Assembly: GCA_965237475.1 (NCBI GenBank)
Contig: OZ250140.1
Span: forward strand, 483,549-547,548
Direction of reading: 5' to 3'
Source: Dehalococcoidia bacterium
GTDB lineage: Bacteria > Chloroflexota > Dehalococcoidia > Bin125
DNA: 64,000 nt
The notes under the pieces were generated by a model, which was not told where the DNA came from, ran no database searches, and saw only the letters and a list, made by a program, of their open reading frames with translations. A program made the position numbers and the translations under genes. Below are positions 9,704 through 59,268 of the stretch, one piece after another (position 1 is the stretch's first letter; each line of letters starts with the position of its first letter).

Positions 9704-9735
9704 TTGGAGCGGGAGAAGGGGCTCGAACCCTCGAC
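9704..9735 (-). other. tRNA 3'-end fragment (T-arm, acceptor 3' strand and CCA), a candidate att-site remnant
   Basis: Minus strand reads GGTCGAGGGTTCGAGCCCCTTCTCCCGCTCCA: T-stem GAGGG/CCCTT, T-loop TTCGAGC, acceptor CTCCCGC, discriminator T, CCA. No matching 5' acceptor strand (GCGGGAG) or anticodon arm upstream. Confidence 0.4.
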
Positions 9736-9769
9736 CCGCTGCTTGGGAAGAAGGCCGGTCGAGTCGGAG

Positions 9770-12075: not shown

Positions 12076-12273
12076 TCGCCGAGTTCCCGACACGGTGGAG
12101 CGGAGAGAGCATTCGTCTGGATCCCTGTCGGCGGCGAGCGTCGCTGACCAACGGGCAGGCGCCGGAATACAGATCGAGTGCGAACTGAGTCATGAGGTTC
12201 CTCGATGCGGTTCGGCGTGGTGCACCGGTTAGTCAACACCGCGAGGGGTCCTGCAACCGCTCTGCCTGCGCCG

Positions 12274-15360
<3,087 letters not shown>

Positions 15361-15389
15361 GTCCTCGAGTGAGGCTTCATCGAGGAGGT

Positions 15390-16169: not shown

Positions 16170-16651
16170 AACGCGAGCTCCGCCTGCCACTCAGGATTAT
16201 GCAGGATACCCCAATGAATGATCTTCGTCTCCGCGCAAAACTGCTCCCAGACCTCGAGAGGCTGATCCCACGTGGCTGTGATGTCCCCGGGCTTGTAGGC
16301 CCACTCGGCCTTGAACTCTTCCGTCCAGCGGTGCTTGTGGGTGCCGTGCGGGCAGTCACAGGCGACGCGCCGCCCGCGTTTCCGTGGGCACGACGGGTTG
16401 TGGTGGAGAAGGTCGCCAAGATCGAGGCCGACGATGCGGCGGGCCCGCCGGTGAACCAGTGTGAAAGTCAGCTTGCCAGAATGCGGGTTCCACCATCCCT
16501 CAACGAACAACGGCCAGTCGGCTTCTGACTGCACGCCGGCGCGGAACCCCTGCGCCGCCGAGTGGAACTCGTCTGACGTCCAGACGATATCGCCGGTGAT
16601 CCGTTTCGTGTCATCGGCGAGGAGCGATTCGAATTCTTGCTGGGTGAGCAT
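16166..16651 (-). CDS. hypothetical protein with a Cys/His cluster (HHNPSCPRKRGRRVACDCPHGTHKHRW)
   Basis: 161-aa ORF, translationally coupled to the downstream gene. Possible zinc-binding or His-Me-finger-like nuclease motif (speculative). Confidence 0.45.
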   Translation of the reverse strand: MLTQQEFESLLADDTKRITGDIVWTSDEFHSAAQGFRAGVQSEADWPLFVEGWWNPHSGKLTFTLVHRRARRIVGLDLGDLLHHNPSCPRKRGRRVACDCPHGTHKHRWTEEFKAEWAYKPGDITATWDQPLEVWEQFCAETKIIHWGILHNPEWQAELAL

Positions 16652-16782
16652 GGTAGAAGGCTCGGTCCGCGGGCCGGCGTCGCTCGCCAGGGGTCAGCTC
16701 GCGAGCCGCGCAGCTAGGGCTGCCTGTCGCGCGATCGATGGGGCGCAGTGGTTAGGCGAGCGTAACCTGTGCGGCATTCCAC

Positions 16783-17409
16783 TCAGGCGGCCGATCCGTT
16801 CGCTTGTGCTGGTTGCTCGACCATCGTCCTTAGGTCGCTGATCATCCATTCGAGCATCTCGAGATTGCGAAGTGTGGTCGTCTCGTTGCCCACGCTCCGT
16901 CGAATCGTCAATAAGAACTCGCTGAAGGTCGTGACAAATTCCATTCCATTCTCTAGAGTGGGCTGGCTGGAGTCGATCGCCGAAGAGGTCGCATTCTCCA
17001 TCGCGTAGGCGAACTGCATCAAGTTGTTGAACGCACGGATGACTTCGTCGCTCGCAAACAGCGATAGCTTGAACGCAGCCTGACGATACTCGATCGACTG
17101 CATCACTTCGGCGCCACTCTTCGCCTTGCGACCCTTCCGCCGATTCGGTTCGCCGGAGTCACCCAAGCCCTCGCTGAATATGGCGATAAACGGCGCGAGA
17201 ATGTTGTTGTAGACGTCGACACGCTCGTCCCTGATCTCCTCTTCGAGCTTCTGTGCCCTCTGGCGAGCCGCAGCTTCCTTCGCCTGAGCCGATTCGATCC
17301 GTCGTTGGAACACCCACAGTATGCCGGAAGCGAGGACGATCAGAATCGGCGTGACAATCGATCCGATCGCGGTGATGATCTCGAGGGTGGTCGGCGCGCC
17401 GGGATCCAT
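16783..17409 (-). CDS. hypothetical single-pass membrane protein with a coiled-coil; lower GC than surroundings
   Basis: TM helix LEIITAIGSIVTPILIVLASGILWVF followed by a charged coiled-coil region (QAKEAAARQRAQKLEEEIRDERVD). The local sequence is AT-richer than its neighbours. Confidence 0.5.
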   Translation of the reverse strand: MDPGAPTTLEIITAIGSIVTPILIVLASGILWVFQRRIESAQAKEAAARQRAQKLEEEIRDERVDVYNNILAPFIAIFSEGLGDSGEPNRRKGRKAKSGAEVMQSIEYRQAAFKLSLFASDEVIRAFNNLMQFAYAMENATSSAIDSSQPTLENGMEFVTTFSEFLLTIRRSVGNETTTLRNLEMLEWMISDLRTMVEQPAQANGSAA

Positions 17410-17557
17410 CAGGTCGCTCCCTCCCCGATTCTTGTGCCGAATGTGGCGGCCGATCCGAGTCCAATCGAAATGAGTCGGGGCAAGAGTGTGTCCCAAGTGG
17501 TGTCATGTGCGCCCGATGGACGGCACGGATGCAGAGCCTGTGAGTGCGGTCGCGGGA

Positions 17558-19027
<1,470 letters not shown>

Positions 19028-24330: not shown

Positions 24331-27300
24331 TTGGCTCATTCTGATCATCAGAGTGAGCGAGTGCGCGGGAGAGGGCGATCCATGGGCGAACTCACGCGGC
24401 GCGCGCGGCGTGTGTGTGCGGCGGTCTTCGGCATTGTCCGCCATCGCCCCACGTTGCTGCTCGTCGGAGTTGCAGGAGTTGCCCTGCTCGGCGCCTTGCT
24501 GTCCAGCCCCTTGTCCGCCCATGGCCAGAGCTTCGACCAGGTGTCCGCGGACACCACCGCCCGCTGGATCGTTGAGGGCGGCCGCGTCTCGGCCGGCGGT
24601 GGCAACGGCTTGACCAAGTTCGCCCAACTTTCCGATGCCGGTGCGATCGACGAAGGCCACAGCGTGTCTGCCGTGGTGTGGAGCACTGCGCCGCACGGTC
24701 CGTCTGGCATCGGGATTAGGGGCGCCTACTCGTCCATCGCCAACACCCCGACGAGCGGCGGGCCCGCGACCACTCAGACAACGCCGGCTGAGGTGCTAGT
24801 CACCCCGACCTTTCTGAGGATCGCGGAGGCCGGCAGCGGTAGCTATTGGGTCTGGTTGCGAACCGCGCCCAGCGCCGATGTGGCGATCGTGATCAGCGCG
24901 GGTGCGGGCGTCGCGGCCTACCCGGCGGAGGTCAAGTTTACGCCTACGAGCTGGCGGAGCGCTCAGATCATCACCGTCAGCGCGCCGGACGACGCGGACA
25001 CGACCAACGAAGACATCTTGATCACGCATGAAGTCAAGATCGGCAGCGCGTCCGAGTACCTAAACGTGGTCGTGCGGAGCGTGCACGTGGTGATAGAAGA
25101 CGACGATGATGCCGGGATCTACGTGTCGCCGACCCGGATGCGGATCGCCGAAGGCCACTCGGCGACGATTGACGTGAAGCTGGAAGCTGCGCCGACGGCG
25201 GATGTGACGGTGACTCCGACGGCGACGACGACGACAGGCGACAGCTCGGTTCCGGACTTCGATTCGTTGACGTTTACCAGCAACGATTGGAACACGGCGC
25301 AACAGCTCACGCTGTCCGCCCCGCAGGACGCCGGCATTAGCAGCGAGGGCTTCAGGATTACGTTCACGGCCGGGAGTAGCGACAGCAACTACAACATCAC
25401 CAAATACAGAGGACCGGAGGTCGTCGTCGAGTTCGCCGACGACGACGGCCGTTGGGCGTGTCTGAGCGTCCGGCCTAAGCGTCTGTATGTGCCGGAGGCT
25501 GGGACAGCCACGTTCAATGTTGCGCTCTGCACCAAGCCCAGGGCCAGACGTGCGGGTGGTTCGCCCGACGTCGGGATCAGCATCTCCGCCGGCGGGGACG
25601 TGACGGTCGACCCGAACAGGCTCCGCTTCGACGAGTCGAACTGGGCGTCGGGGATCACTGTGACCGTCAGCGCCGGAGCCGATGAGGACGGCGCCAATGA
25701 CGAGGTCACCGTCAACATTCGAGGCAGTGGGGGTGGCGATTCCCTCTACGCCGGCACGGAGGCTCAGGTCCCGGTCATCGTCATCGATGACGACAGCGGC
25801 GGGATCATCAACCCAACTGACATCACGGTTCCCGAGGGTGGCAGGGGCTACTACAAAGCCATGGTCATCTCCGAACCCTCGGGTGTCGTGACCATCTCCA
25901 TCTCAGCGGGCCCGGGCGTGACCACGAACGTCTCCCGGCTCAGCTTCACGCCCTCAAACTGGGAGACGCCCCAGTACGTGATCGTCAGCGCGCCCGCCGA
26001 CTCCGTCACGGAGAACGTCGGCCTCCAGTTGTCCCATTCGATCGGCGGCAGCTCGAGCGAATATGACGCCATCACGCTGCCGGATGTAATGGTCACAGTG
26101 GCCGACAGTGGAGCTGGTCCGGTCAATTTCGCCCGGGCAGATCAGGCCGACGGCACCCAACTGAGCTGGAGTCCGCCGCCGACGCCGATCACCCCCGGCC
26201 TCCGCACCGAGGTCTACCAGTACGAGCTCGAGCGATCCGTCGATGGCGGCGCCTTCGCGTTGCTGACCTGCGTCGACGGGGACTCGGGCAGCCTCCTCGA
26301 CGAGAGCGTCGTGGAGGGCACGGCGTACCGCTACCGGGTCCGCGCCGTCTACTACGCCACCACCCGCTGTGCAGCGTTGCGAGACATCGAGCTGACGTCG
26401 GGGGCACTTGTTCAGTGTGAGGCCTCCGGTGTCTGGTCCGACGGCGACACGATCTGGGTCGCGCACGAATCCGATCAGACGCTCTACGCATACGATCTGG
26501 CGACGGGCGACGCGCAAGCCGACGATGACATCACACCGAACACTGCCTACACGGATGTCGACGGTGGCCTGTGGGGCGACGCAACGCGCATCTGGACCGT
26601 GACCGCGAAGCACCCCCGACCCAGTCTCCCTGAACAAGTCGCGTTTGTCCCATATCGGATATCCGACGGCGCGTTCCTCTCGAGCGATCTCCTACCTACC
26701 AATGGCGACATGCGCCCCATCGGCTACCACCCGAGTGGCGTGGACCGTGCAGCGCTACCAGCGGCCGAGGCGTTCTTCAGCGACGGTTCGACGTTCTGGG
26801 CCGCCGCGTCGGGGCGTGACACGTTGTTCGCCTACCGAGCGTCCGACGGCGAGCGCGACTACGACAAGGACATCCTCGTGCCGGACACGGTCTGTCAGCA
26901 CGATCAGGTCGTGGGCATCTGGCACGATTCATCGCAGGGTCTGTTATATCTGGCGACGCAGTGCTCCACGCGAAAGCTGTTTGCGCTTGACCTGTCAGAC
27001 GGGCCGGGGAACGCGCACCACATCCCCGTTCACGACGTCACGTTGCCTCCTGCGCATGGCGAGATTAAAGACTTCTGGTCCGACGGCGACATTGTCTGGG
27101 TCAGTTCCAACACCAGCTCTACAACCACCAGGGACAAGCTGCTCGCCTACCCGCTGCACAACAACCGCCAGTACTCGGGCTGGTCCTCGCCGCCTGCCGT
27201 GGAGTCGGTCACGGTGGCCGAGGCCTCGATCACGCAGACCGAGGCGACGGCAACGGCCACGGTCAGCGAGCCCAACGGCGGACTCGTCCACCTCCGTTAC

Positions 27301-30300
27301 TCAGACACAACTGACCCCGAGAACTGGACGCTCACCTCTCTGACGGCGGAGATCGGCTCGACGACGGTCGACTTCCTGCTGACCGGCCTCACCGCGAACC
27401 GTGAGTATACGGTGGAGGCGTCCTTCGACAGCAGCCTCCCGGCGGCGCGTACGAAGACGGCCACGTTTAGGACGCTGCCGCCCGCTATCGAGTCCGTCGG
27501 CGCGATCGCAAAGACGCAGACCACGGCCACCATCAGCGCCATCATCAGCGCTCCGAACGGCGACTCGAAGAGGGTCCAGCTCCGCTACCGGATCAAGGAC
27601 GAGACGGCGTGGCAGGCAACGGACCCAGTAGATACGACCAATGATCACGCGGACTTCGCGCTGAGCGACCTCACCTCCGGGACCGACTACGAGCTGGAGG
27701 CCTCGTTCGACAGCAACTTCCCGACCGACGAGACGACTACCGGCAAGTTCGCGACCGAACCGCCCAGCGTGGATTCGGTCGTCGCGAGCGGCGAGACGCA
27801 GACCGGGGCGACGATCACCGTGAATGTCATCGAGCCAAACGGCAGCCTCGTCTACATCCGATTCCGCGCCGGCGCGACCTGGAAGTCCGAATCCGCGGAG
27901 GTCGCGTCCGGCGAGGTCTCGCACGAGTTCACCCTGATCGATCTGACGTCGGATACCACTTACCAGGTGGACGCGTCGTACGACAACACCTTCACCGACA
28001 GTGACGCGATCCGCTCTGACAGCTTCAAGACGCTGCCGCCGAATGTGGAATCGGTCGACGTCAGTGACGAGGGACAGACGAGTGCGACCGTCACGGTCAC
28101 CGTCGAAGCGCCCAACGGCAGTGAAGTGCAGCTACGCTACCGCACCGGTACCGGTGGCTGGAGGACGACCCGCAAGCCCGTACTCGCCGGCGAAACATCC
28201 GTCGAGTTCGCGTTGCGCGGGCTGATCTCCGACCGCGAATACGAGGTCCAGGCCTCCTACGATTCGAGCTTCCCGGACACCGATGCCACGCTGTCGACGA
28301 CCTTCACAACCCTGCCGCCCAGCGTCTACTCCGTCATCGTTCGCGACAAGACCGAGACGACCGCGAACGCCAAGATCAAGATCGCCGCGCCGAACGGCGA
28401 CTCGCAGACCGTCCGGCTGCGCTACTCCCCCACAGCGGCGGAAAGCTGGAGCACCGCCGAGCCGGCCACCAGCACTGACGCAGACGCGACGATCCCGCTC
28501 CAGAGTCTGACCGCCGCCACGCAGTACAAGGCGGAGGCCACGCTGGCAAGCGACTTCACCTCCGGTGTGCGCTCGACCGTCTTCTCCACCCTGGGCGATG
28601 ACGCAATCGTCGAGGACATCTTTGTGTACGAAGAAGACATCCACCAGACAGAAGCCTGGGCGACGATCATCGTCGCCAACGTGGGCGGAGTGCCGAGACA
28701 CGTCTACCTTCGGTACCGCACCGCCGGCGATACGCCGGGAAGCTGGAACGCAACGCTGCTGGAGGCCGATACCGATCCGATCGCTCAAGATACTGCGACG
28801 ATCAGGATCACGAATCTGATCGCCGGCACGCAGTACGACGTGCAGGCGTCGCTGGACTCGACGTTTGCCACCGGCACTCAGCAGACCACCTTCACGACCG
28901 ACGCGCCGGACCCGGAGATCGTGAGTGTGATCGCCACCAGCGACTCGTCGACCAGGGCCACGGTCACGGTCACCATCAACCACCCGGATGGCAGCAGCGT
29001 CTACGTGGGTTACCGCACGACGGGCGACCCGCCCGGCTCATGGAGCGCGCCCGTTGATTTCGCCGCCGACACGTCCAGACACTCGCTGACTCTGTCTGGC
29101 CTGTCTCCGTCGACAGAGTATGAAGTGACGGCGGTGTTCGGCACCCCGTTCCCCGCGACACCACGCGTGTCGGACATCTTTTCCACCCTGGCGTTCGATG
29201 CCACGCTCACCGACGTACGGGTGACGAACATCGCGCAGTCGGGCTCGGGCGGCGCAGCCAAGGCGACGGTCACCGTCGCAATCGCCAACGCAAACAACAT
29301 GGCTCGGATGATTTACCTGCAATATCGCGAGGTCGGCGCCGCCGCCTGGAGTGACCCACCCCTGGAAGTCAGCGTCACTGAAACTGCCACGCGTGACATC
29401 ACGACCTTGATGGTCAGCTCGAACTACGAGCTGCAGGCATCGCTCACGGACGACTTCACCAGCCCTGCCGCAACCAGCTTTTCTACGCCGGACGTGGTGA
29501 AGGTCAGCGTCGACGTAACCGAGCAGACCGCGAAGGTCACCGTCGAGATCGGCAACCCCGGGAGTGCGGAGAAGACGGTGCACCTCCGCTACGGTCCCGT
29601 CGATGAAACCGAAACGCAGACAAGCACGAAGAGCGAAAGGACAACCAAGACGAGCAGGAGCAGCACCGAGACGAAGAGCAGCACCGAGACGAAGAGCAAG
29701 GAGGGGACAACGACCGGCGACAGTGTCGAGATCCCCCTGCCAGCCCTGATTCCCGACCAGATGTACTCGGTCGAGGCGTCGCTCGATGACAGCTTCAATC
29801 GGGGCGTAAGACGCGCAGAGTTCCGCACAGAGGCGGGCACCAGCCCGATCATCACCACCCCCGGCGGCGGTGGCGGCGGCGGTGGCGGCGGTCCACCGCC
29901 CAAGCCGGTCCCATCCGAAGCCGATTTCACCTGGAACGTCACCCGCGACATCGACTCACTGCACGGGGGGAACGACCAGCCCACAGGGATTTGGGGAGAC
30001 GGTGAGCTGCTCTGGGTCCTGCAGAATGCTACCTCCGGCCCCGACGCCATCTTCGTCTACGACCTTGAAACCGGCGAACGCGTGGAGGACCGCGAGTTCG
30101 AACTCGACCACAGAAATCGCTTCTCGCACGGCATCTGGTCCGACGGCGAAACCATCTGGATCTCCGACAGCGGCCGCGACCTGCTCTTCGCCTACGACAT
30201 CGACACCGGGGAACGCTTGCCCGAGCTGGATATCGAACTCCACGAGGACAACCGCGACCCGCGTGACATCTGGTCCGACGGTGAGGTGATCTACGTACTC

Positions 30301-31683
30301 GACAACCGCAGAGATTCGATCTTCGCCTATGACCTCGAAACTGGCGAACTGATCGCCGAGTACGAACTCGACAAACTCAACGCCGATCCGCGCGGCATCT
30401 GGTCCGATGGAGTCACAATCTGGGTCTCCGATGACGCCGCCAATCGCATCTTCGCGTACCGCATCGACGGCGAAACGCTCAAGCGGATCGAGGCGGAGGA
30501 GTTCAGCTTCCAACAGTTGCTGCGCGCCGGCAACGGCGACCCGCGCGGCATCTGGTCCGACGGCGGGGTGGTCTACGTCGTCGACGACGCAGACGACAAG
30601 GTCTACACCTACAACCTGCCCGACGCGATCGACGCGCGCCTCGCGTCACTATCGCTGAGCGGCATCGCGATCGACGAGTTCTCACCGAGACGGAAGTCAT
30701 ACGCGGCGATCCTCAGCAGTGGTCTGACCGAGACCACCGTGCAGGCCACCGCGATGCAGGAGGAGGCCACGGTCATGCTCGCACCGACCGACGCTGATGC
30801 CGACCCCGAGAACGGTCACCAGGCGGCAGTGTCGGACGGGATGGAAATCACTGTCACGGTGATCTCTCCCGACCGCAGCCGCACGCGGGTCTACCGGGTA
30901 TCGCTCCGGCACTGCCTCTCCGGTCTGACCGAGGTGGGCCTCAGTCTTGTCACCTACGTCGGCGGCAGCCTGGTTGACCTGGCGGATTGCGCTCGCGACC
31001 TTTCCGTGGGAATGCTCTACGACCACAAAGAGACCGGCTGGACCGGATTCTTCCTCGACTATCCCGTGTTCCTCAGTCAGCCCTTCCGCGACCGCTTCGC
31101 CGACGGCCTGGCGGCCGGCCAGGTGCTGATCGCCAACCGCGCGCCGGCCGGCAGCGGGCATTGCCTCTCCGGTCTCACTGACGAGCATCTCAGCGCCGTC
31201 ACCTACACCGGCGGCAGCCTCGCTGAACTGGCGGATTGCGCTCGCGATCTCTTCGTCGACACGCTTTATAGCCAGACCGAGGACGGCTGGACCGGATTCT
31301 TCCCCGGCTATGCCACGTTCCTCAGTCAGCCCTTCCGCGAGCGGTTCCCCGACGGTCTGGGGGCTGGCCAGGCGCTGATCGCCAAACGCGCGCCCGCCGG
31401 CAGCGAGCGCTGCCTCCCAGGTCTCACCGAGGCGCCGCTCAGTGCCGTGACCTACACCGGCGGCAGCCTGGATGGGCTGGCGGAGTGCGCCCGCGATCTC
31501 TCCGTCGACGCGCTCTACCACTACACAAGGGACGGTTGGACCGGGTTCTTCCCGGACCATCCCGCCTTCCTCAGCCAGCCCTTCTTCGACCGCTTCGCCG
31601 GCGGCCTGGCAGCTCGCCAGTCGCTGATCGCGAAACGCAACCCAGCTGCGATCACTACACCGATCAACGGCAGCCCGAACTGA
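24331..31683 (+). CDS. giant exported repeat protein 1 (2450 aa): beta-sandwich repeats, two propeller-like 'WSDG' repeat blocks, about 12 Fn3-like repeats, poly-Gly hinge, triple ~80-aa Cys-containing C-terminal repeats
   Basis: Likely start at Met 24382 followed by a signal peptide (LLLVGVAGVALLGALLSSPLSAHG). Repeats are visible directly in the translation. 18-bp tandem repeat (agcaccgagacgaagagc x2) in a T/S/K-rich linker at about 29660-29700. Confidence 0.85.
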   Translation: MAHSDHQSERVRGRGRSMGELTRRARRVCAAVFGIVRHRPTLLLVGVAGVALLGALLSSPLSAHGQSFDQVSADTTARWIVEGGRVSAGGGNGLTKFAQLSDAGAIDEGHSVSAVVWSTAPHGPSGIGIRGAYSSIANTPTSGGPATTQTTPAEVLVTPTFLRIAEAGSGSYWVWLRTAPSADVAIVISAGAGVAAYPAEVKFTPTSWRSAQIITVSAPDDADTTNEDILITHEVKIGSASEYLNVVVRSVHVVIEDDDDAGIYVSPTRMRIAEGHSATIDVKLEAAPTADVTVTPTATTTTGDSSVPDFDSLTFTSNDWNTAQQLTLSAPQDAGISSEGFRITFTAGSSDSNYNITKYRGPEVVVEFADDDGRWACLSVRPKRLYVPEAGTATFNVALCTKPRARRAGGSPDVGISISAGGDVTVDPNRLRFDESNWASGITVTVSAGADEDGANDEVTVNIRGSGGGDSLYAGTEAQVPVIVIDDDSGGIINPTDITVPEGGRGYYKAMVISEPSGVVTISISAGPGVTTNVSRLSFTPSNWETPQYVIVSAPADSVTENVGLQLSHSIGGSSSEYDAITLPDVMVTVADSGAGPVNFARADQADGTQLSWSPPPTPITPGLRTEVYQYELERSVDGGAFALLTCVDGDSGSLLDESVVEGTAYRYRVRAVYYATTRCAALRDIELTSGALVQCEASGVWSDGDTIWVAHESDQTLYAYDLATGDAQADDDITPNTAYTDVDGGLWGDATRIWTVTAKHPRPSLPEQVAFVPYRISDGAFLSSDLLPTNGDMRPIGYHPSGVDRAALPAAEAFFSDGSTFWAAASGRDTLFAYRASDGERDYDKDILVPDTVCQHDQVVGIWHDSSQGLLYLATQCSTRKLFALDLSDGPGNAHHIPVHDVTLPPAHGEIKDFWSDGDIVWVSSNTSSTTTRDKLLAYPLHNNRQYSGWSSPPAVESVTVAEASITQTEATATATVSEPNGGLVHLRYSDTTDPENWTLTSLTAEIGSTTVDFLLTGLTANREYTVEASFDSSLPAARTKTATFRTLPPAIESVGAIAKTQTTATISAIISAPNGDSKRVQLRYRIKDETAWQATDPVDTTNDHADFALSDLTSGTDYELEASFDSNFPTDETTTGKFATEPPSVDSVVASGETQTGATITVNVIEPNGSLVYIRFRAGATWKSESAEVASGEVSHEFTLIDLTSDTTYQVDASYDNTFTDSDAIRSDSFKTLPPNVESVDVSDEGQTSATVTVTVEAPNGSEVQLRYRTGTGGWRTTRKPVLAGETSVEFALRGLISDREYEVQASYDSSFPDTDATLSTTFTTLPPSVYSVIVRDKTETTANAKIKIAAPNGDSQTVRLRYSPTAAESWSTAEPATSTDADATIPLQSLTAATQYKAEATLASDFTSGVRSTVFSTLGDDAIVEDIFVYEEDIHQTEAWATIIVANVGGVPRHVYLRYRTAGDTPGSWNATLLEADTDPIAQDTATIRITNLIAGTQYDVQASLDSTFATGTQQTTFTTDAPDPEIVSVIATSDSSTRATVTVTINHPDGSSVYVGYRTTGDPPGSWSAPVDFAADTSRHSLTLSGLSPSTEYEVTAVFGTPFPATPRVSDIFSTLAFDATLTDVRVTNIAQSGSGGAAKATVTVAIANANNMARMIYLQYREVGAAAWSDPPLEVSVTETATRDITTLMVSSNYELQASLTDDFTSPAATSFSTPDVVKVSVDVTEQTAKVTVEIGNPGSAEKTVHLRYGPVDETETQTSTKSERTTKTSRSSTETKSSTETKSKEGTTTGDSVEIPLPALIPDQMYSVEASLDDSFNRGVRRAEFRTEAGTSPIITTPGGGGGGGGGGPPPKPVPSEADFTWNVTRDIDSLHGGNDQPTGIWGDGELLWVLQNATSGPDAIFVYDLETGERVEDREFELDHRNRFSHGIWSDGETIWISDSGRDLLFAYDIDTGERLPELDIELHEDNRDPRDIWSDGEVIYVLDNRRDSIFAYDLETGELIAEYELDKLNADPRGIWSDGVTIWVSDDAANRIFAYRIDGETLKRIEAEEFSFQQLLRAGNGDPRGIWSDGGVVYVVDDADDKVYTYNLPDAIDARLASLSLSGIAIDEFSPRRKSYAAILSSGLTETTVQATAMQEEATVMLAPTDADADPENGHQAAVSDGMEITVTVISPDRSRTRVYRVSLRHCLSGLTEVGLSLVTYVGGSLVDLADCARDLSVGMLYDHKETGWTGFFLDYPVFLSQPFRDRFADGLAAGQVLIANRAPAGSGHCLSGLTDEHLSAVTYTGGSLAELADCARDLFVDTLYSQTEDGWTGFFPGYATFLSQPFRERFPDGLGAGQALIAKRAPAGSERCLPGLTEAPLSAVTYTGGSLDGLAECARDLSVDALYHYTRDGWTGFFPDHPAFLSQPFFDRFAGGLAARQSLIAKRNPAAITTPINGSPN

Positions 31684-34274: not shown

Positions 34275-35114
34275 ATGGCACACAAGATAGCGTTGCTCAA
34301 TATGAAGGGCGGAGTAGGAAAGTCGACTCTTGCCGTGAATCTCGCGTGGGAGATGGCTACGGAGCCTTGGAACAAAAGGGTCCTCGTAGTGGATCTCGAT
34401 CCACAGTTCAACTGTAGTCAGTATCTGTTAGGCGTACGCCGCGTCGAAGAGATTATATCGGCCGGCGACCCAACGGTCTGGCACATCCTTGAACAGCACA
34501 CGACAGTTCCTGACAGGCCAAGTGCCCCGTTCGATCCTTCCGACGCGGTAGTCCGTGTATTCTCCAGAAGGTCTGCTGGATCCATTGACCTCATTCCTTC
34601 GCGATTGGAGTTGTCTCAGTCACTGCGCAACCCCGCAGGTAAAGAACAGTTGCTCAAGCGCGCGGTTGACAAATTGGAAGAAGCATATGACCTCGTGATC
34701 ATCGACTGCGCGCCGACTGAATCCATGCTCACCACGGCAGCCTATATCGTTGCCGATCATCTCTTAGTCCCGGTTCGACCGGAGTTTCTGTCCACGATTG
34801 GCTTGCCGCTGTTGGAGCGATCTTTGAGTGAGTTTTCTGCCTCTCACCCTGGATACGAGCCTCAAGTCTTGGGCCTTGTGTTCAATGCGATCTCCGCGTA
34901 TGCACCGGAGGAGGTGACTTCGAGAACTCAGGTCCAACGAGTCGCAGCCGCACAGGGCTGGCCTGTCTTCGATCAAGAGGTTGCCTATTCGCGATCGTTT
35001 CCAAAGGGCGCACGCGAAGGGAGTCCTATCTTCTGGACTTCATATGCGAGGACGAATGCCAAGGCTAACTTCCACAGGTTCGCCAGCGAGTTTGCACAGC
35101 GAATCGGCATATGA
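34275..35114 (+). CDS. ParA/MinD-family ATPase
   Basis: Deviant Walker A 'MKGGVGKST'. GC visibly lower than flanks. Confidence 0.85.
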   Translation: MAHKIALLNMKGGVGKSTLAVNLAWEMATEPWNKRVLVVDLDPQFNCSQYLLGVRRVEEIISAGDPTVWHILEQHTTVPDRPSAPFDPSDAVVRVFSRRSAGSIDLIPSRLELSQSLRNPAGKEQLLKRAVDKLEEAYDLVIIDCAPTESMLTTAAYIVADHLLVPVRPEFLSTIGLPLLERSLSEFSASHPGYEPQVLGLVFNAISAYAPEEVTSRTQVQRVAAAQGWPVFDQEVAYSRSFPKGAREGSPIFWTSYARTNAKANFHRFASEFAQRIGI

Positions 35115-52068: not shown

Positions 52069-55000
52069 TCAGCCGTCCGGCCGCGTCGCCGCGAGCCCCG
52101 GCGCGGCGCTGACGATGGTCCAGGTCAACGGCTCCGTGACGGAGATCAGATAGGCGCTGCCGTTGCTGAGAGTGGTGAGCGTGCGGAGTCCGGGAACGTT
52201 AGCCAGCTCGGGGTCCGTGACAAAGATGCGCCAGGTTTGCGTGGCTGGGTCGTACTCGTAGATCGCGATGACCTTGTCTGAGATGTCGTCGTCGGCCCCG
52301 GTCCCGCGCAGCGCGTCGGCGATCGGGACGCCGTCGCGGCCGGGCCAGCTGAACGAGCTCAGGCCGGCGTCAAGCTCGATCAGCGACTCGACGCTCTCGA
52401 TTCGGACTCGGTAGACGCGCCTGCGGCTGGCGTCTGCGGAGGTCACGGTGATCGTGATCTCGGCGCCCGCCGTGATCGCGACCTGGTGGCCGTTCTCCGC
52501 GTCCGCGTCCGCGTCGGCGGGCTCGATCACCACGCCGGCCTGCTCCTGCACGGCTGCGGCTGCGATCGTGCTGGTCGCCGCACCGCCCGTTGAGGAGCCG
52601 CCGTACTGCGTTGTACGGCTCGAGAACGCGCCGAACTCGATCTCGCTCAGGCTCAACTCGGCCAGCCTCGCGTCGGCCGCGTCGGGCAGGTTGTAGCTGT
52701 AGACATGGTCGTCCTGCTCGTCGACCACATAGACCACCTCGCCGTCGCCCCAGATGCCGCGCGGCTGGCCGTTGCCGGCCTTCAGCAGCGGACGGAAGCT
52801 GAACTCCTCCGCCTCGATCCGGGTCAGCGTCTCGGCTTCGACGCGGTAGGCGAAGAGCCGCTTCGCGCCGTCGTCGGAGGCCCAGAGGGTGAGGCCGTCG
52901 GACCATAGGCCGCGCGGGCTGCGGTTGAGCCGGTCGAGCGGATATTCGGCCAGCAGTTCGCCGCTCGTCAAGTCGTAGGCGAACAGCGAGTCGCGCACGC
53001 TGTCGAGCACCCAGAGCGTTGCGCCGTCGGACCAGATGCCGCGTGGGTCGCGGTTATCCTCGGACAGTTCGAGGTCGCGCTGCTCCACACGCTCGCCCGT
53101 GGCGAGTTCGTAGGCGAACAGCCGGTCCTGGCCGCTATCGGCGATCCATATGGTCTCACCATCGGACCAGATGCCGTGCGCGAAGCGGTTGCGAGCGACG
53201 AGCGGGAACTCAAGCTCGGGTTGGCGCTCCCCGCTGGCGAGGTCGTAGGCGAAGACCGCGTCGGCGCCGCCGGCGGCGTTCTCCAGCACCCAGAGCGTCT
53301 GGCCGTCGGACCAGATCCCGGTGGGCAGATCGTGTTCGCGGTCCAGTGACTCGATGTCGCGAGTCACGTTCCACTCGAAGTCAACCTCCGAGGGGATCGG
53401 GATCGGCGGCGGTCCCCCGCCTCCGCCCCCGCCACCACCGCCGCCGCCCGTTGAGGTGGTGGTCCTGACCGGGATTTGAGCCAGAAGTTCGGAGATATCT
53501 ACCTCGGTGACGATCACCTTTACCTCGAAGTCAGCCGAGTTGCCCTCACTATCAGTAGCCGTGATTGTCAACTCGTAGATGTTGTCGGAGCCGCTGTCTG
53601 TTGGCGCAGCATAGTTGGGCAACGGGGCCCAGTTTGTGTACAAGTGCTCGAAGCCTGGGTCCGTGCCCGGCAGGCTGAAAGGCCTGTCGTTATAGAAGCT
53701 GAGCACGCCGCCTGCGCTGATTTCGAAGTCGGCGCCGTCGGCCCCGGACAACGCCCAGGTGATTGGTGTATGGCCATCCTCGTCGGTCGCGGTATACGTC
53801 GCCACGGGATCGTCTACATGCTCCTCAAAGGTCAAGAACGATTCGCCCGTCACGACCGGCCGGTCATTCACATCGATGACGCTGATGGTCACGCGTATCG
53901 AGTCGGTCTCACCGGAGGGGTCAGTGGCGGTCACAACCACTGTATAGCTGGTTCTCTGTTCATAGTCGAGGGCGGCTCTTGTACTGAGCTGGCCCGTGTT
54001 TCTTTCGATCTCGAAATACTGCTCGCCACCGCTGTCCAACTGGTAAGTCCGCGGGTCGCCGTCCGGGTCGGTGGCCTCGACGGGCGGTCCAATGGGTTGA
54101 CCGCTGGGGGTGTTTTCGCGCACAGTTCGGGCGCCCGTCTCGCTGGATGGGAACTCGGGCGGATCGTTGGTGTCCGGCCTGGCCTGCGACCGATTCACGG
54201 AGACCGCTTCCTCAGACTGCCCCGTACTCCACCGGTCGTCATACGAAACGACGACCCTCAACAGGAAATCCGTGTCCGTAGCTGTGGGCGTATAAGTCGC
54301 CGACACGGCATCGTTGATCACAAACCACCGGTCGACCACCGTCCCCTTGCGCCACCAGGTCCAGACGGCGTTGGTCACACCCCCATCCGGGTCGCTCAGT
54401 TCGGCCCTGAATGGGACATCCTCGACCGGTTGCTGCGACGATAGCTGCAGCGTTCCGGGCTCATTTTCGTTGCCAATGGTCACCGAGACAGGTTGCGTCG
54501 CGGTGTTGGTCCCGTCGGTGACCTCCAGCGTCACCTGGTAAACGCTGTCTGAGTTCGCGTCGGTCGGAGACTCATAGTCGGGAATCGCCAGCAATCTGAG
54601 CACGCCATCGTTGGCGATGGGCTCGAAGTCCTCGCTATCGGTCCCCGACAGACTCCAGACGAGCGGCTGATCTTCCGGGTCCTCAGCCGTGTAGTCGTAC
54701 GTCAGATCGGAGTCGTTCTCCATCCGGGTCGGGGCAAAATCACCCAAGATCACTGGCGCTTCGTTCGCATCGGTGACCGAGACAGTCAGGTCCCAGGCGC
54801 CGGTCAATAGCGCTTCGTCCCTGACGCTCACGGTCAAGTGGTAGACGTTGTCCACATCGGCGTCGCCGGGCATTTCGAAGTCTGGTGGCGCATTGAAACT
54901 GAGCACGCCGCGTTCGCTGAGCGTGAAGAGGTCCTTGTCGGCGCCGGCCAACTCCAACCAGGTGATCATCGTCCCTTCCGGGTCGCTGGCAGTGAACGTG

Positions 55001-58000
55001 TGTACCGCGCCGACGCCGTTTTCCTCGTACCGGGCGTTCTCGGGACCGGTGACCAGGGGCATCTCCTCCACGTTGGTCACCGTGACGGTGATGGCGCTGG
55101 TCACTGCGTTGGTCCCGTCAGAGGCCCGCACGTCGACCCGGTAGGTGTTGTCGCCACCACTATCAAGGGGAAAATCGTAGTTGCGCAATCGACGTAATTT
55201 GCTTCTGAGGATCCCGTTGCTACTGATCTCGAATCGGAGCTCGTCAGTCCCCAGCAGCGACCAGACGATTGGCGCGTTCTCAGGATCGTTGGCTGTGAAG
55301 ACGGCCACCGCCCCAGAGGTGTTCTCGGCTTGGGTCGCCGTGCCTGGTCCCGAGATCGTTGGAGCTTCATCGCGGTCGGTGATCGCGATTCGGACGTTCC
55401 GCGCGCCCCTGTTGCCGTTCTGGTCCGCAGCCTGCACTGACACGTGGTAGACGTTGTCCCGGCCGGCATCGGTCGGCGCCTCGTAGTCGGGCGTCGTGAC
55501 GAAGCTGAGCGACCCGTTGGTGATCGTAAAGTCGTCACGGTCTTGCCCCGCCAGCGACCAGGAAATCGTGCCGCTCTCCGGGTCCGACGCGCTGTAGCTG
55601 CCCACGGCGCCGGTGCGGTTCTCGGCAAACACGATGTCGGCCAGACCCGAAACGGACGGGGCCTCGTCCACTCCGGTGACCGTGATCGTGACGGCCTGCG
55701 TGTCCGCGGCGAGCGACGGATCCCGGACCGTGACCGTCAGTGAGTACGAGGCCCGGCTTTCCGTGCTGAGAGCCGCCTTCGTGCGCAGTTGGCCCGTATC
55801 AGCGTCGATCTCGAAGTCGCTGGCCCGGGAGCCACTGAGGGCATAGTTCAGGGTGTCGCCACTATCGGCATCCGTCGCCTCGACCGGCGCGCCGATGTCC
55901 ACGCCGGCGGCCGTGTTCTCGGCCACGCTGCGCGCGCCCGTTTCGGTGGACGGGAACTCGGGCGCGGCATTCGTCGCCGGCGCTGCGCGGACGGCGGAAC
56001 TGAGTTCGAACTGCGCGCTCCTGCCCGCTCCGAGCGGGTCTCTGTAGGCCGCCGTCACTCGCAGGTAGTTGTTCAGGTCGGCGTCAACCGGGGTGTAGCG
56101 GAACGAAGTCGCTCCGCTGATTGGACTCCAGCTCACGAGGTTGCTCGAGCTCTCCCACGTCCACGTGATCCTGCTCGCGTTGCCGTCCTGGTCAACCACG
56201 GTCGCGGTTAGTGCGGCGCCGACCTGCGGCTGGAGCGAAGACAGGCGCAGCTCGCCTGGATCGTCCCGGTTGACTACGTTGACCGTGATGTCGATCAAGG
56301 CGGCGTTGGCGCCGTCACTGGCCTCGACCGTCAGCTCGTGGCTGCGCAGGCGCTCGTAGTCGAGCGTGGCGCTCGTACGCAACTGGCCGTCGCTGTCGAT
56401 CGCAAAGAGCGCAGCGGCCGGGCCGGTCAGGGTATAGGTCAGTGCGCCGCCCTCCGGGTCTACAGCCGCGAGCGGAGCTCCGATCGCGCTGCCCGCCGCT
56501 GCGTCTTCAACGATTTCGCGCGTCGCGGTCGCCTCCGCGAAAACCGGTGGTTCATCAACCCCGCTCACCGTGATCTCGACATGTCGGAAGGCAACCAGCT
56601 TGCCGTCCGAGACCTGCACGGCGAACCTGAGGACATCCTGGGCTTCGTGATCCAGGACGGCCCCGACTGCCAACTGGCCCGTCGCCTGGTCGATGTCGAA
56701 GGCGAGGGCGTCTGCCCCGACCAGCGCGTACGAGAGCGTGTCGCCGTCGCTATCGGTGGCGTCGACGGGAGCGCCGACGTCGGTTCCCAATGCTGCATCC
56801 TCGGCAACCGTGTATAGGGCCGTCGCCGAGCTAAACGAGGGCGGAACGCTTGGCTGCCGCAGCGTCGGATAGTCGCTGCTGGCGCCGAAGTCCCAGGGGT
56901 CATGCGCGCTGACCGGAAAGTAGCCGAAATCAGTCAGAACTTGCTCCACGTTCCAGTGCAGGTAGATGCCCGTGTAGTCGATGGGCGTCTGTAGCTCGGA
57001 GGTGGTCAGGCCCGATGCGCCGTCGGTTGACGTTTCGCCGCTCCCGATCATGCCGTCGCCGTTGAGATCGTCCGACCCGACGCCAACGCTCCGTCCCGTG
57101 GTCTGCGTGTCCCAATAGTCATAGAAGAATCCACCAAACCCCAACGAGCCGGCAAATCCACCAACGTTCGTCGTGCCGGTCACTGAGCCCGTGGCATAGC
57201 TGGCGCGGACTCCGGGCCTTGTGCTGGCGCCGACCAACCCACCGACATCTGTGGCGCCGCTCAGCGATCCCGTCGCATACGACGCAAAGATCCTGCCCCT
57301 GAGACGTCCGACCAGGCCTCCGACATTGCTGGATCCGATCACGCCACCCGTTGCGTAGCTGCGGTGAACTTCGCCGTTACCCAACCCCACCAAGCCACCG
57401 ACATCTGTGGTTCCAGTGACAGTTCCGCTGGCAAAGGTTCCATTAAGGATCGATGCCACCGAGCCATGGCCAACCAACCCTCCCGTTTCCGCGCCTCCGC
57501 TGATCGCGCCGGTCGCGGCGCTCTCGACGATCGTGCCGCCGACGACGCCGAGCAACCCACCGACCTTCGTGCCCGTGCTGAGCACGTCGCCGAACGCCGT
57601 GCTCCCGCCGACCCCAGAAATGGCGCGGCCGGCGAGGCCGCCGACCTCGTCACCCGTGCCGGTCGCGTCACCGACAGCGCCGATCGCGCTGCTGTCGAAA
57701 ATCGCTGCCCTGCTGTAGCCGATCAATCCGCCAACTTGGTCGTGGCCCGTCACGGCGCCGCTGGCGAAGCTGTCGCGGATCGTTCCGCTGTTCCGTCCGA
57801 CCAGACCGCCGGTGGCCTCGCCTTCCGCGTTGTTGCCGGTGACCGCGCCGCTGGCCGTGCTTCGCTGAATCTGCGCGCTCACATTCCGGCCGACCAGACC
57901 GCCAACGTAGCTGTGGCCCGTCACGCCGCCGCGAGCGCTGCTGTCGCTAATCGGACCGTCGTTCCAGCCGACCAGCCCGCCCGCCCAGTTGCCCGCTGTG

Positions 58001-59268
58001 ATGGCGCTAGCGCTCGCCGTGCTCTCGCTGATCGCATTGACACCTCCGGCGCCGTCGTTGGACCCGAGCAGTCCGCCCACCGTTGAGAGTCCACGCACTG
58101 TCGTGCCGAGGGCATGGCTGTCGCTGATCGGACCGTTGTTCCAGCCAACCAACCCTCCGGCATAGTGGCCGCTGGCCGTCACATCCCCACTGGCAGTACT
58201 ATTCTCGATCTGGTTGTGACCGTCTGCCTGCTCGTCATAGTTGCTGCCCACGAGTCCGCCGACATTGGCGCCGCCGCTGACGGTACCGCTGGCGCTGCCG
58301 GCGCTGATCGGGCCGTTGTTCCAGCCGACCAGCCCACCGACGGAATGGTCGTAGCCGGTCACCGCGCCGCTGGCAGCGCTGTCGCTGATCGGATTGTCAC
58401 CATCGTTCTGAGCGTCATAGTTGTTGCCTACCAGGCCGCCGACGGAGCTGTTGCCGCTGACGACGACGCTGGCGCTGCTAGCGCTGATCGGGCCGTAGTT
58501 CAGCCCGACCAAGCCGCCGATGACGTCGCCGGAAGCGGATACAAGGCCTGAGGCGCTGCTGCCGCTGATCGTTCCTGCGTTCCAGCCGACCAACCCGCCG
58601 ACAGTCCCCAATCCGGTAATGGTCAAATTGACCAGGGTGACATTGCGGATCACGCTGCTCGTGCCCGCCTGGCCGAACAAGCCAAGGCTGTACGAAAGCG
58701 CCCGGTTGATGTACAGGCCGTTGATCGTAAAGTCCGGGGCTCCGCCGTCGAAGGTGGCGTTAAATCTGCTCGTCTCGCTATCCGTCGAGCCGTCGCCGAT
58801 CGGATACCAGCCGGCAGCGCCATGTCCTGCGTCAGCAAGGTTCAGGTCCGCCACCAGCTCATAGCCCGTGCAGGTCGATGGGCAACCCATCCTCGAGACC
58901 GCGTCCGGGAACGCTGCGGCGTAATCAGTCGCTGAGGCGCTGGAGTCCGCGCTGCCATCGCCGTTCAGATCCCAGCGGACGGCGTTCAGCTGCGCGACCG
59001 ACCGGATCTCAATCAGGCCGTCTTGATCCGTGTCGTAGTCAATGCTGCCGGTCTGCGCATGGGCGGTTGAGTCGAAGCCCTGCTCGGCCAGTAGGATCAC
59101 GCAGCCAAGCGCGATCGCCACTACGGCCAACAGCCTGACCGTATTCGGCGCTGCCAGCGCTCTGCGTGTTCGCGTCGGTCGAGCAGAGCGGTCGCGCGCA
59201 GCGACGCACGCTGGCGGAGCTTGGTTGGAACGGGCCCAGCCAATGCGTCGACAAATGCGCCTATGCAT
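52069..59268 (-). CDS. giant exported repeat protein 2 (2399 aa): DxDxDG Ca-binding-like N-terminus, GLUG-motif glycine-rich repeats, about 8 cadherin-like repeats, poly-Gly/Pro hinge, 'IWSDG' propeller-like repeats, cadherin-like beta-sandwich C-terminus
   Basis: GLUG-like VGGLVGxNxGxI repeats. Cadherin-like repeats ending ...TVTGVDEAP. C-terminal about 450 aa collinear with protein 1 (GGGGGGGGGPPP..SE(A/V)DF(T/E)WNVTRDI(D/E)SL...). Confidence 0.85.
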   Translation of the reverse strand: MHRRICRRIGWARSNQAPPACVAARDRSARPTRTRRALAAPNTVRLLAVVAIALGCVILLAEQGFDSTAHAQTGSIDYDTDQDGLIEIRSVAQLNAVRWDLNGDGSADSSASATDYAAAFPDAVSRMGCPSTCTGYELVADLNLADAGHGAAGWYPIGDGSTDSETSRFNATFDGGAPDFTINGLYINRALSYSLGLFGQAGTSSVIRNVTLVNLTITGLGTVGGLVGWNAGTISGSSASGLVSASGDVIGGLVGLNYGPISASSASVVVSGNSSVGGLVGNNYDAQNDGDNPISDSAASGAVTGYDHSVGGLVGWNNGPISAGSASGTVSGGANVGGLVGSNYDEQADGHNQIENSTASGDVTASGHYAGGLVGWNNGPISDSHALGTTVRGLSTVGGLLGSNDGAGGVNAISESTASASAITAGNWAGGLVGWNDGPISDSSARGGVTGHSYVGGLVGRNVSAQIQRSTASGAVTGNNAEGEATGGLVGRNSGTIRDSFASGAVTGHDQVGGLIGYSRAAIFDSSAIGAVGDATGTGDEVGGLAGRAISGVGGSTAFGDVLSTGTKVGGLLGVVGGTIVESAATGAISGGAETGGLVGHGSVASILNGTFASGTVTGTTDVGGLVGLGNGEVHRSYATGGVIGSSNVGGLVGRLRGRIFASYATGSLSGATDVGGLVGASTRPGVRASYATGSVTGTTNVGGFAGSLGFGGFFYDYWDTQTTGRSVGVGSDDLNGDGMIGSGETSTDGASGLTTSELQTPIDYTGIYLHWNVEQVLTDFGYFPVSAHDPWDFGASSDYPTLRQPSVPPSFSSATALYTVAEDAALGTDVGAPVDATDSDGDTLSYALVGADALAFDIDQATGQLAVGAVLDHEAQDVLRFAVQVSDGKLVAFRHVEITVSGVDEPPVFAEATATREIVEDAAAGSAIGAPLAAVDPEGGALTYTLTGPAAALFAIDSDGQLRTSATLDYERLRSHELTVEASDGANAALIDITVNVVNRDDPGELRLSSLQPQVGAALTATVVDQDGNASRITWTWESSSNLVSWSPISGATSFRYTPVDADLNNYLRVTAAYRDPLGAGRSAQFELSSAVRAAPATNAAPEFPSTETGARSVAENTAAGVDIGAPVEATDADSGDTLNYALSGSRASDFEIDADTGQLRTKAALSTESRASYSLTVTVRDPSLAADTQAVTITVTGVDEAPSVSGLADIVFAENRTGAVGSYSASDPESGTISWSLAGQDRDDFTITNGSLSFVTTPDYEAPTDAGRDNVYHVSVQAADQNGNRGARNVRIAITDRDEAPTISGPGTATQAENTSGAVAVFTANDPENAPIVWSLLGTDELRFEISSNGILRSKLRRLRNYDFPLDSGGDNTYRVDVRASDGTNAVTSAITVTVTNVEEMPLVTGPENARYEENGVGAVHTFTASDPEGTMITWLELAGADKDLFTLSERGVLSFNAPPDFEMPGDADVDNVYHLTVSVRDEALLTGAWDLTVSVTDANEAPVILGDFAPTRMENDSDLTYDYTAEDPEDQPLVWSLSGTDSEDFEPIANDGVLRLLAIPDYESPTDANSDSVYQVTLEVTDGTNTATQPVSVTIGNENEPGTLQLSSQQPVEDVPFRAELSDPDGGVTNAVWTWWRKGTVVDRWFVINDAVSATYTPTATDTDFLLRVVVSYDDRWSTGQSEEAVSVNRSQARPDTNDPPEFPSSETGARTVRENTPSGQPIGPPVEATDPDGDPRTYQLDSGGEQYFEIERNTGQLSTRAALDYEQRTSYTVVVTATDPSGETDSIRVTISVIDVNDRPVVTGESFLTFEEHVDDPVATYTATDEDGHTPITWALSGADGADFEISAGGVLSFYNDRPFSLPGTDPGFEHLYTNWAPLPNYAAPTDSGSDNIYELTITATDSEGNSADFEVKVIVTEVDISELLAQIPVRTTTSTGGGGGGGGGGGGPPPIPIPSEVDFEWNVTRDIESLDREHDLPTGIWSDGQTLWVLENAAGGADAVFAYDLASGERQPELEFPLVARNRFAHGIWSDGETIWIADSGQDRLFAYELATGERVEQRDLELSEDNRDPRGIWSDGATLWVLDSVRDSLFAYDLTSGELLAEYPLDRLNRSPRGLWSDGLTLWASDDGAKRLFAYRVEAETLTRIEAEEFSFRPLLKAGNGQPRGIWGDGEVVYVVDEQDDHVYSYNLPDAADARLAELSLSEIEFGAFSSRTTQYGGSSTGGAATSTIAAAAVQEQAGVVIEPADADADAENGHQVAITAGAEITITVTSADASRRRVYRVRIESVESLIELDAGLSSFSWPGRDGVPIADALRGTGADDDISDKVIAIYEYDPATQTWRIFVTDPELANVPGLRTLTTLSNGSAYLISVTEPLTWTIVSAAPGLAATRPDG

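Follow-up and report, generated by a model that had tools for sequence, protein, structure and literature searches.

The gene considered here is a 7.3-kb open reading frame (ORF) on a contig of a Dehalococcoidia bacterium (OZ250140.1), within a 64-kb stretch of DNA that was analysed as a whole and is called the window below. It encodes a very large repetitive protein. For the most part this is a giant scaffold of the ordinary adhesin-like kind, such as has been noted before in sponge symbionts. What is new is its C-terminal end: a conserved cassette in which a glycine-rich hinge is followed by a five-bladed propeller with a WSDG blade motif, a Cadherin-like beta-sandwich and three tandem copies of an 83-residue domain with two cysteines (the Cys domain), the last being an undescribed and confidently modelled domain family. 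Coordinates are those of the window throughout, and residues are numbered from the codon TTG 24331, which makes the codon ATG 24382 M18.

The Cys domains are visible already in the DNA as a C-terminal repeat of 249 bp (83 aa; 2.8 copies, 80%) in Tandem Repeats Finder (TRF). Each unit has two cysteines, at positions 3 and 28 and thus 25 residues apart, and scores about 101-103 bits against the family profile; the units share 66-71% of their amino acids with each other. In an alignment of 67 non-redundant sequences from 113 full-length instances of the domain taken from relatives (alignment A1), C28 is invariant, and C3, L4, G6, G19, G20, L25, A29, A36, P53, F60, G67, and L74 occur in at least 90% of the sequences. 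A GG pair follows the first strand. Since the conserved columns include no polar residue, the domain looks non-enzymatic. The two cysteines probably form a disulfide staple in each unit. An AlphaFold2 model of the domain has a predicted local distance difference test (pLDDT) score of 93.3 and a predicted template-modelling score (pTM) of 0.83, with the order of elements beta-alpha-beta-beta-alpha-beta.

An earlier reading of the same DNA from its letters and translations (the sequence-only reading) had been unable to place the terminal triple repeat in a known family, and the same was found for Pfam, NCBIfam, PDB profiles, and Foldseek against PDB and BFVD. Pfam gave no meaningful match for the 67 sequences (best E = 0.008, to SDH_C, in two of them), and NCBIfam gave nothing relevant. 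The profile of alignment A1 had no match among PDB sequences (best E = 1.2). The structure prediction that the sequence-only reading had asked for yielded a confident model, and Foldseek found no neighbour for it, with best values of E = 0.69 at a template-modelling (TM) score of 0.37 in PDB and E = 0.08 in BFVD. The best PDB match is the C-terminal domain of PulM; a ferredoxin-like relationship to PulM/bS6 was considered and is unsupported at these values. Among Pfam and NCBIfam profiles, the repeats do not match SLH or other cell-wall-binding repeats, nor sorting domains of the type IX secretion system (T9SS) or of PEP-CTERM type. A phmmer search of PDB with the whole protein gave nothing, and PDB profile searches with the Cys domain, the cassette, the N-terminal repeats, and an alternative C-terminal tail gave nothing significant. 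The Cys domain is a real, rare, and undescribed family without detectable relatives in sequence or structure in Pfam, NCBIfam, PDB, and BFVD. Nor do all other segments of the protein fall into known adhesin domains: like the Cys domain, the N-terminal repeats and the WSDG propeller are without a curated family.

The distribution of the Cys domain was obtained from an exhaustive search of 1.84 billion representative sequences with the A1 profile, in which 696 proteins were found at E <= 1e-3, of which 339 also pass E <= 1e-10. In the best 149 of the 696, two copies are the rule (136 proteins); nine proteins have one copy, two have three, and two have five. The chain ends within 30 aa of the last copy in 119 of these 149, and a WSDG propeller lies upstream in 89 of the 98 that are at least 700 aa long. 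In the exceptions, the pair of Cys domains follows leucine-rich repeat (LRR) arrays, a subtilase S8 domain with P-domain and Fn3, or Calx-beta, Kelch, RCC1, or Fn3 arrays. Judged from these sequences, the Cys domain is a generic module, usually C-terminal, that is carried by unrelated N-terminal parts, and its triple copy is rare. A word-indexed protein search with the three repeats gave two matches and is misleading, because such a search seems to return only proteins shorter than about 1.75 times the query, so that fragments are listed and the size of a family of giant proteins is understated. One related giant gene with three Cys domains (L001, ERZ28763718 ctg52128, 3303-10900) is annotated as three overlapping calls of 1460, 728, and 299 aa, a split that is probably due to assembly frameshifts. 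It has a long Pro/Glu/Ala-rich linker preceding the third Cys domain and a GPP34-p450 fusion gene upstream; a connection of GPP34 with sponge symbiosis has been reported (PMC11706023).

The cassette as a whole is also shared widely among otherwise different proteins. In hundreds of proteins, hinge, propeller, and Cadherin-like domain stand behind arrays of the Fn3, cadherin, GLUG, or Calx-beta type. The word-indexed search lists 686 relatives of the propeller-Cadherin-like unit, and the few with names come from metagenome-assembled genomes (MAGs) of Chloroflexi/Dehalococcoidia. In a scan of one genome per GTDB species, with the fetched loci annotated by the profiles built here, the full cassette of hinge, propeller, Cadherin-like domain, and Cys domain was found only in MAGs of Dehalococcoidia, Tepidiformaceae, and 'Chloroflexi', apart from one contig. 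These MAGs often hold several cassette-bearing genes per genome, some of them in tandem. The single exception, a 4.8-kb contig binned as Gammaproteobacteria, is probably misbinned, because it belongs to the same bin series (SB0675) as two contigs of SB0675_bin_30 (Chloroflexi) and has a coverage similar to theirs. Propellers at a greater distance (31-42% identity) have neither hinge nor Cys domain and reach 14 copies per protein; they come from Acidimicrobiales ('Candidatus Poriferisodalis/Poriferisocius'), Aldehydirespiratoraceae, Limisphaerales, and Latescibacterota. The largest count belongs to an Acidimicrobiales MAG (L061, OZ220692.1), in which the frame 2-17083 encodes more than 5,694 aa, runs off the locus, and has 14 matches of the propeller profile, an extreme case from another phylum.

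Two syntenic orthologues, L002 (2424 aa) and L003 (2458 aa), lie on two complete Dehalococcoidia MAG chromosomes with the same CoA-transferase gene downstream. They are 80% and 73% identical to the protein under study, respectively, with equal domain counts. The ratio of nonsynonymous to synonymous substitution rates (dN/dS) is 0.16-0.76, below 1 in every segment and 0.6-0.76 in the N-terminal region. Because both orthologues retain the whole architecture at this degree of divergence and constraint, the features of the gene are not due to chance: it is a real, intact, and constrained gene. Identity to the orthologues rises along the chain: it is 35-39% in the N-terminal region (aa 63-156; 39% for L002 and 35% for L003), 65-79% for the stalk, and 74-95% for the cassette. 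Insertions and deletions between the orthologues cluster in the N-terminal region, at a TETKSS site within the stalk, and in the poly-Gly run of the hinge.

Each Cys unit is closer to the unit at the same position in the orthologues (77-95% identity) than to its own neighbours (66-71%), which means that the triplication is old and stable. The idea that the Cys repeats evolve in concert or vary in copy number was considered as well and is ruled out by the same figures. The sequence-only reading had suggested comparing genomes for variation in repeat number; domain copy number turned out to be constant among orthologues and to vary only among paralogues. The propellers of the two cassettes in the window, one in this gene and one in a paralogue, are just 69% identical. 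The synonymous rate (dS) itself is uneven along the gene: the signal peptide (24382-24525) and cassette (29914-31653) have values 2-4 times lower than those of the stalk and N-terminal region (against L002, 0.14-0.19 and 0.36-0.83, respectively). This may point to recombination or a mosaic history along the gene.

How such a protein would leave the cell and stay on it has to be read from its two ends. Its sole hydrophobic stretch is N-terminal, at about aa 39-62. In nearly all full-length family members, an A-x-A|Q-type site follows a basic segment and 15-20 hydrophobic residues, and the paralogue at 52069-59268 also carries the A-x-A|Q motif. Since these three elements recur throughout the family, we infer Sec export with cleavage of the signal. 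The sequence-only reading had called the protein exported and multi-repeat, which agrees with the single N-terminal hydrophobic segment, the AHG|Q site, and the many repeated domains, export itself being a prediction. The mature protein would be strongly acidic (332 D+E against 161 K+R). There is no LPXTG motif (LPx[TSA]G) in the protein, and its C-terminus (...LIAKRNPAAITTPINGSPN) has no hydrophobic segment; nor is there an RTX GGxGxD motif, and a signal-like segment is present at the N-terminus. After cleavage, nothing covalent or membrane-embedded would be expected to retain the protein.

The reading that we favour, at somewhat less than an even chance, is that of a Sec-exported extracellular adhesin-like protein of about 2,400 residues, which belongs to a paralogue-rich family of sponge-symbiont-type Dehalococcoidia and whose C-terminal cassette serves as a non-covalent retention or binding module. 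After removal of the signal, the variable N-terminal region and the four beta-sandwich repeats behind it would form the distal, fast-evolving end. One Fn3 domain, a diverged propeller, and nine Fn3-like domains would make a long stalk, which a slippage-prone poly-Gly/Pro hinge would connect to the conserved cassette. The WSDG propeller, Cadherin-like sandwich, and Cys domains of the cassette would together be a non-catalytic binding module, and the tandem, probably disulfide-stapled Cys domains would keep the protein attached, without a covalent bond, to the envelope or matrix of its producer. The cassette would then act like C-terminal SLH, CWB2, LysM, or GW repeats, with the Gly/Pro segment as the wall-spanning region. 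Retention is preferred here because one conserved C-terminal unit serves many different N-terminal parts, a protease included, because the Cys domains are tandem and usually at the extreme C-terminus, and because a Gly/Pro segment precedes the cassette while conservation runs from a variable distal end to a conserved base.

Several observations weigh against retention. The cleavage site was judged by eye, and an uncleaved N-terminal anchor would reverse the polarity and make the cassette the distal head. A unit of propeller, sandwich, and three Cys domains, about 580 residues in all, is large for a mere anchor. Sponge-associated Acidimicrobiales, Limisphaerales, and Latescibacterota have proteins with up to 14 WSDG propellers and no hinge or Cys domain, and from their sequences these look more like carriers of a lectin or ligand-binding module for a shared (host) target. 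In addition, the five Cys domains of two representatives are distributed along the chain and not confined to its end.

It is well possible, though not probable, that the protein is attached by its N-terminus through an uncleaved signal-anchor, or is shed, and that the cassette is a distal lectin-like head on a poly-Gly tether. The five-bladed propeller would then work as a multivalent lectin, with the Cadherin-like and Cys domains binding ligands of the sponge matrix, of host cells, or of neighbouring cells. The hydrophobic segment of about 19 aa is long enough to be compatible with a membrane anchor. The blade motif N-R-x-P-R-G-I-W-S-D-G is repeated five-fold, as expected of equivalent binding sites, and this type of propeller crosses phyla of sponge-associated bacteria with different envelopes, which points to a common external target. 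In the literature, Fn3- and cadherin-domain proteins of sponge symbionts are read as host-attachment factors (PMC8163846). Retention is nevertheless favoured by three points. The A-x-A|Q sites past the hydrophobic segment are conserved across the family and argue for cleavage. The cassette evolves most slowly and recurs in paralogues whose N-terminal parts differ greatly, a protease among them, which is more typical of modules for sorting or anchoring than of tips that determine specificity. Moreover, among the annotated loci the Cys domain itself was found only in those of Chloroflexi type. Under either polarity the cassette is, as far as its sequence tells, a binding module and no enzyme.

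The propeller bears on this last statement. The sequence-only reading had seen two propeller-like blocks, and both are real. The second gave the good model listed in Table 1 (pLDDT 88.5) and is 92% and 86% identical to its counterparts in L002 and L003; the first is a diverged copy of it (25% identity, E = 7e-13 in self-comparison), with partial matches of the propeller profile. At family level neither Pfam, NCBIfam, nor a PDB profile search gives a match for the WSDG propeller, and NHL, PQQ, and WD40 repeat families come up below threshold only (DUF5128 at 13 bits; PQQ_2 at 20.3 bits, cut-off 27.6). The top Foldseek matches of the second propeller are five-bladed glutaminyl cyclases of the plant/bacterial type (3mbr, 3nol, and 2iwa; TM 0.71-0.76, E about 1e-10). 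A surface-tethered enzyme of this type, or another propeller hydrolase, might be proposed from this likeness, which comprises five blades of about 45 residues and a motif repeated five-fold. It is very unlikely. Identity to the cyclases is just 15-16%, Pfam and NCBIfam scans show no match to glutaminyl cyclases or any enzyme family, and the sole PDB profile match is one blade of virginiamycin B lyase (E = 0.018) and no cyclase. NHL and other binding propellers follow with almost equal Foldseek scores. Unlike the cyclases, the WSDG domain sits inside giant multidomain proteins and is often repeated, twice here and up to 14 times in relatives, which is unusual for a catalytic domain. As modelled, the resemblance to glutaminyl cyclases is one of fold only. 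Another known five-bladed propeller is the lectin tachylectin-2, which is absent from the 50 Foldseek matches listed for the WSDG propeller.

One Pfam match on the propeller deserves a separate remark. PF22729 (NCH3, 'NACHT C-terminal helical domain 3') reaches 30.4 bits, above its threshold, without an individually significant stretch; the match falls on a WSDG blade (aa 1970-1999, nt 30238-30327) and recurs in most homologues. Because the matched region is all-beta in the model, it looks like a spurious match or one to a contaminated model, and it could mis-annotate the whole family. The Cadherin-like beta-sandwich proposed by the sequence-only reading is borne out: PF12733 exceeds its gathering threshold when the region is scanned alone (Table 1), scores 24.0 bits in the scan of the whole protein, and is precomputed for most homologues.

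The part that follows the propeller-Cadherin-like unit varies. At least three alternative tail types occur at this place. In the paralogue of the window, the tail of about 95 aa differs from the Cys domain and has the pattern WPG...YEYD...VPGL.TL...G.AY...LTW (tail alignment A4). This WPG tail is common to many relatives and has no match in Pfam or PDB; hhalign of the Cys domain with the 'WPG...YWV' tail gave a probability of 49% over 25 columns only. A scaffold for delivery that is conserved while its C-terminal effector tails are exchanged, in the manner of polymorphic toxins, would account for the alternatives, and we consider it highly improbable. The tails are small, tandem-repeated, and without conserved polar residues. 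No immunity-like small gene lies downstream; the window and both orthologous loci have a conserved CoA-transferase gene there. The tail is also the most conserved part of the protein and not the most variable.

The ORF reported in the sequence-only reading is present and uninterrupted. TTG 24331 is merely its first possible start. ATG 24382, which has a Shine-Dalgarno-like GGGAGAGGG 8-13 nt on its 5' side, is more likely the true one and gives a protein of 2,433 aa; the public gene call at an identical locus, on a 373-kb contig with an identical downstream gene, also has 2433 residues. In the databases, the gene calls of many relatives are fragmentary or frameshifted, and an assembly artefact or a decaying pseudogene built of repeats may come to mind for this reason, an explanation that is hardly credible, since the frame is unbroken across 7.3 kb, the public contig carries the identical call, and the comparison with two full-length syntenic orthologues under purifying selection on complete MAG chromosomes effectively refutes it. 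Rfam and tRNA scans found nothing in the window, and promoter and terminator scans around the gene gave nothing that exceeded the level of shuffled controls.

The anatomy of the whole protein is collected in Table 1, with domain boundaries taken from a comparison of the protein with itself and from profiles built on it.

Table 1. Features of the giant gene and its paralogue in the window (aa, residues numbered from TTG 24331).
Feature	Position	Strand	Residues (aa)	Remarks
ORF under study	24331..31683	+		2450 codons counted from TTG, no interruption
Probable true start and Sec-type signal peptide	24382..24525	+		Arg-rich n-region, hydrophobic segment of ~19 aa, predicted cleavage SAHG|Q
N-terminal region of ~90 aa	24526..24798	+	66-156	fastest-evolving part of the protein
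Four tandem repeats of ~108 aa	24799..26118	+	157-262, 265-373, 380-491, 493-596	self-BLAST and the protein's own profile
Fn3 domain, canonical-looking	26122..26400	+	598-690	PF00041 only weakly matched in isolation, E = 0.032
First, diverged five-bladed WSDG-type propeller	26419..27165	+	697-945	five blade motifs readable in the translation
Nine tandem Fn3-like repeats of ~90 aa (stalk)	27211..29835	+	961-1835	own profile, independent E-values 1e-29 to 1e-36
T/S/K/E-rich insertion	29599..29715	+	~1757-1795	loop of the ninth Fn3-like repeat; split profile match, repeat alignment
Poly-Gly (G10) and PPPKPVP hinge	29863..29913	+	1845-1861	between stalk and C-terminal cassette
Second, well-conserved five-bladed WSDG propeller	29914..30639	+	1862-2103	AlphaFold2 pLDDT 88.5, pTM 0.86
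Cadherin-like beta-sandwich (PF12733)	30640..30906	+	2104-2192	32.1 bits alone, cut-off 24.2
Three tandem 83-aa Cys domains	30907..31653	+	2193-2275, 2276-2358, 2359-2441	own profile
Paralogous giant gene	52069..59268	-		2399 aa; GLUG repeats, cadherin array, G13-PPP hinge, WSDG propeller, Cadherin-like domain

Behind the signal, the region of aa 66-156 has no detectable family and no Pfam match. The tandem repeats that follow it, each of which closes with an acidic DDD-type motif, had been counted as about five beta-sandwiches by the sequence-only reading. There are four of them (aa 157-596), and its tentative Calx-beta label is only weakly suggested: no unit matches any Pfam family at E <= 1, Calx-beta (PF03160) included, the PDB profile matches are weak and Ig-like (E 0.1-1), and hhalign of the repeat profile with a Calx-beta-like segment of the relative P0239 gave a weak alignment (probability 55%, 93 columns). 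They are probably Ig- or Calx-beta-like beta-sandwiches.

In the stalk, membership of the Fn3 family is given by PF00041, which reaches 39.9 bits against a cut-off of 25 in the scan of the whole protein, and matches of Pfam fn3, FN3_DSCAM, and Arylsulfotran_N all map to the region of the Fn3-like repeats. The domain type named by the sequence-only reading therefore stands, with a count of ten (nine and one) in place of about 12; the single Fn3 domain upstream of the first propeller aligns poorly and with large gaps with the nine. The profile match of the ninth repeat is split in two by the T/S/K-rich stretch, which contains a perfect 18-bp tandem repeat (29658-29698, 2.3 copies, 100% matches; TRF and direct reading of the DNA). 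As had been supposed, this site is variable in length, the window having 10 aa more than both orthologues. It had been taken for a linker between domains, and in this respect the picture changes: because it lies inside the ninth repeat and takes the place of the loop that bears a conserved Trp in the other eight, it is a loop expansion. The G10 hinge followed by PPPKP is present as described, encoded by a (GGN)10 run at 29863-29892 (TRF and direct reading of the DNA). The Gly run differs in length among orthologues: the window has 10 residues, L002 has 13, and L003 has 23 with further Gly-rich residues besides; among paralogues the length is 5-16, and some members have no run of 5 or more.

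One other part of the window fits a reported trait of sponge symbionts. Their genomes are reported to be enriched in Fn3- and cadherin-domain genes and in restriction-modification (R-M) systems (Robbins et al., 2021, PMC8163846), Fn3 being especially abundant in Chloroflexota and Actinobacteriota (PMC8163846). A type I R-M system on the minus strand (12274-19027), consisting of HsdR (12274-15360), HsdM (17558-19027), and small ORFs between them that presumably include the specificity subunit, fits the reported enrichment. One relative was located on bin125 of the microbiome of the sponge Aplysina aerophoba (PMC5649159); a diel transcriptome paper mentions bin125 and no such genes. Literature searches turned up no description of the cassette and only general reports of Fn3 and cadherin enrichment. 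The window also encodes a third Fn3 protein without the cassette (39306-42131, minus strand, 941 aa; PF00041 at E = 2e-15). Between 33200 and 37400, around the gene of a ParA-like ATPase (34275-35114), GC content falls to 0.578, and the gap between two CoA-transferase genes is about 4.35 kb in the window and about 2.5 kb in L002. The segment 33200-37400 may be a small insertion.

Attachment to and recognition of the host by the dominant uncultured Chloroflexota of high-microbial-abundance sponges have so far been approached through counts of Fn3, cadherin, and eukaryote-like repeats. Many such giant proteins share one conserved C-terminal cassette ending in a small domain that is undescribed and confidently foldable. 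A bolder proposal, which we hold as rather unlikely, is that the Cys domain is a new family at the level of fold and forms with hinge, propeller, and Cadherin-like unit an unrecognised surface-display system, for retention or docking, of sponge-symbiotic Dehalococcoidia. If this were true, the system would present exchangeable adhesins and enzymes (Fn3, cadherin, LRR, Kelch, and subtilase) at the interface of symbiont and host, and a cassette for display or anchoring would define the surface proteome of these symbionts. The A1 profile can find the whole repertoire in any MAG, and a domain of 83 residues is easily expressed for binding tests.

Among known systems, a close parallel to the proposed retention is offered by monoderm bacteria, in which C-terminal repeats such as SLH x3, CWB2 x3, LysM, and GW retain proteins non-covalently on the surface, after Pro/Gly-rich segments that span the wall. 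The Cys domain is similar in being small, tandem (usually one to three copies, five in two proteins), and usually at the extreme C-terminus, in serving unrelated N-terminal parts including a subtilase, and in following a Gly/Pro segment here, in a protein whose signal looks cleavable and which lacks a covalent or membrane anchor. It differs in that it has no similarity of sequence or fold to these repeats and in that a propeller and a beta-sandwich stand between hinge and repeats. Giant repetitive adhesins of bacteria are represented by the Bap/RTX adhesins (for example LapA and MpIBP) and by the MSCRAMM-type proteins of Gram-positives. Here RTX nonapeptides, a type I secretion signal, and LPXTG are absent, an N-terminal Sec-type signal is present, and the terminal module is another one; a variable end, a long beta-sandwich stalk, a conserved terminal module, and a strongly acidic composition are shared. 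The 'attachment' proteins of sponge symbionts with Fn3 and cadherin domains are known as Pfam domain counts, in which poly-Gly hinge, WSDG propeller, Cadherin-like unit, and Cys domain are not described, and the present protein is like them in its long Fn3/cadherin-type arrays, its Chloroflexota-type genome, the R-M genes nearby, and its relatives in sponge MAGs (PMC8163846).

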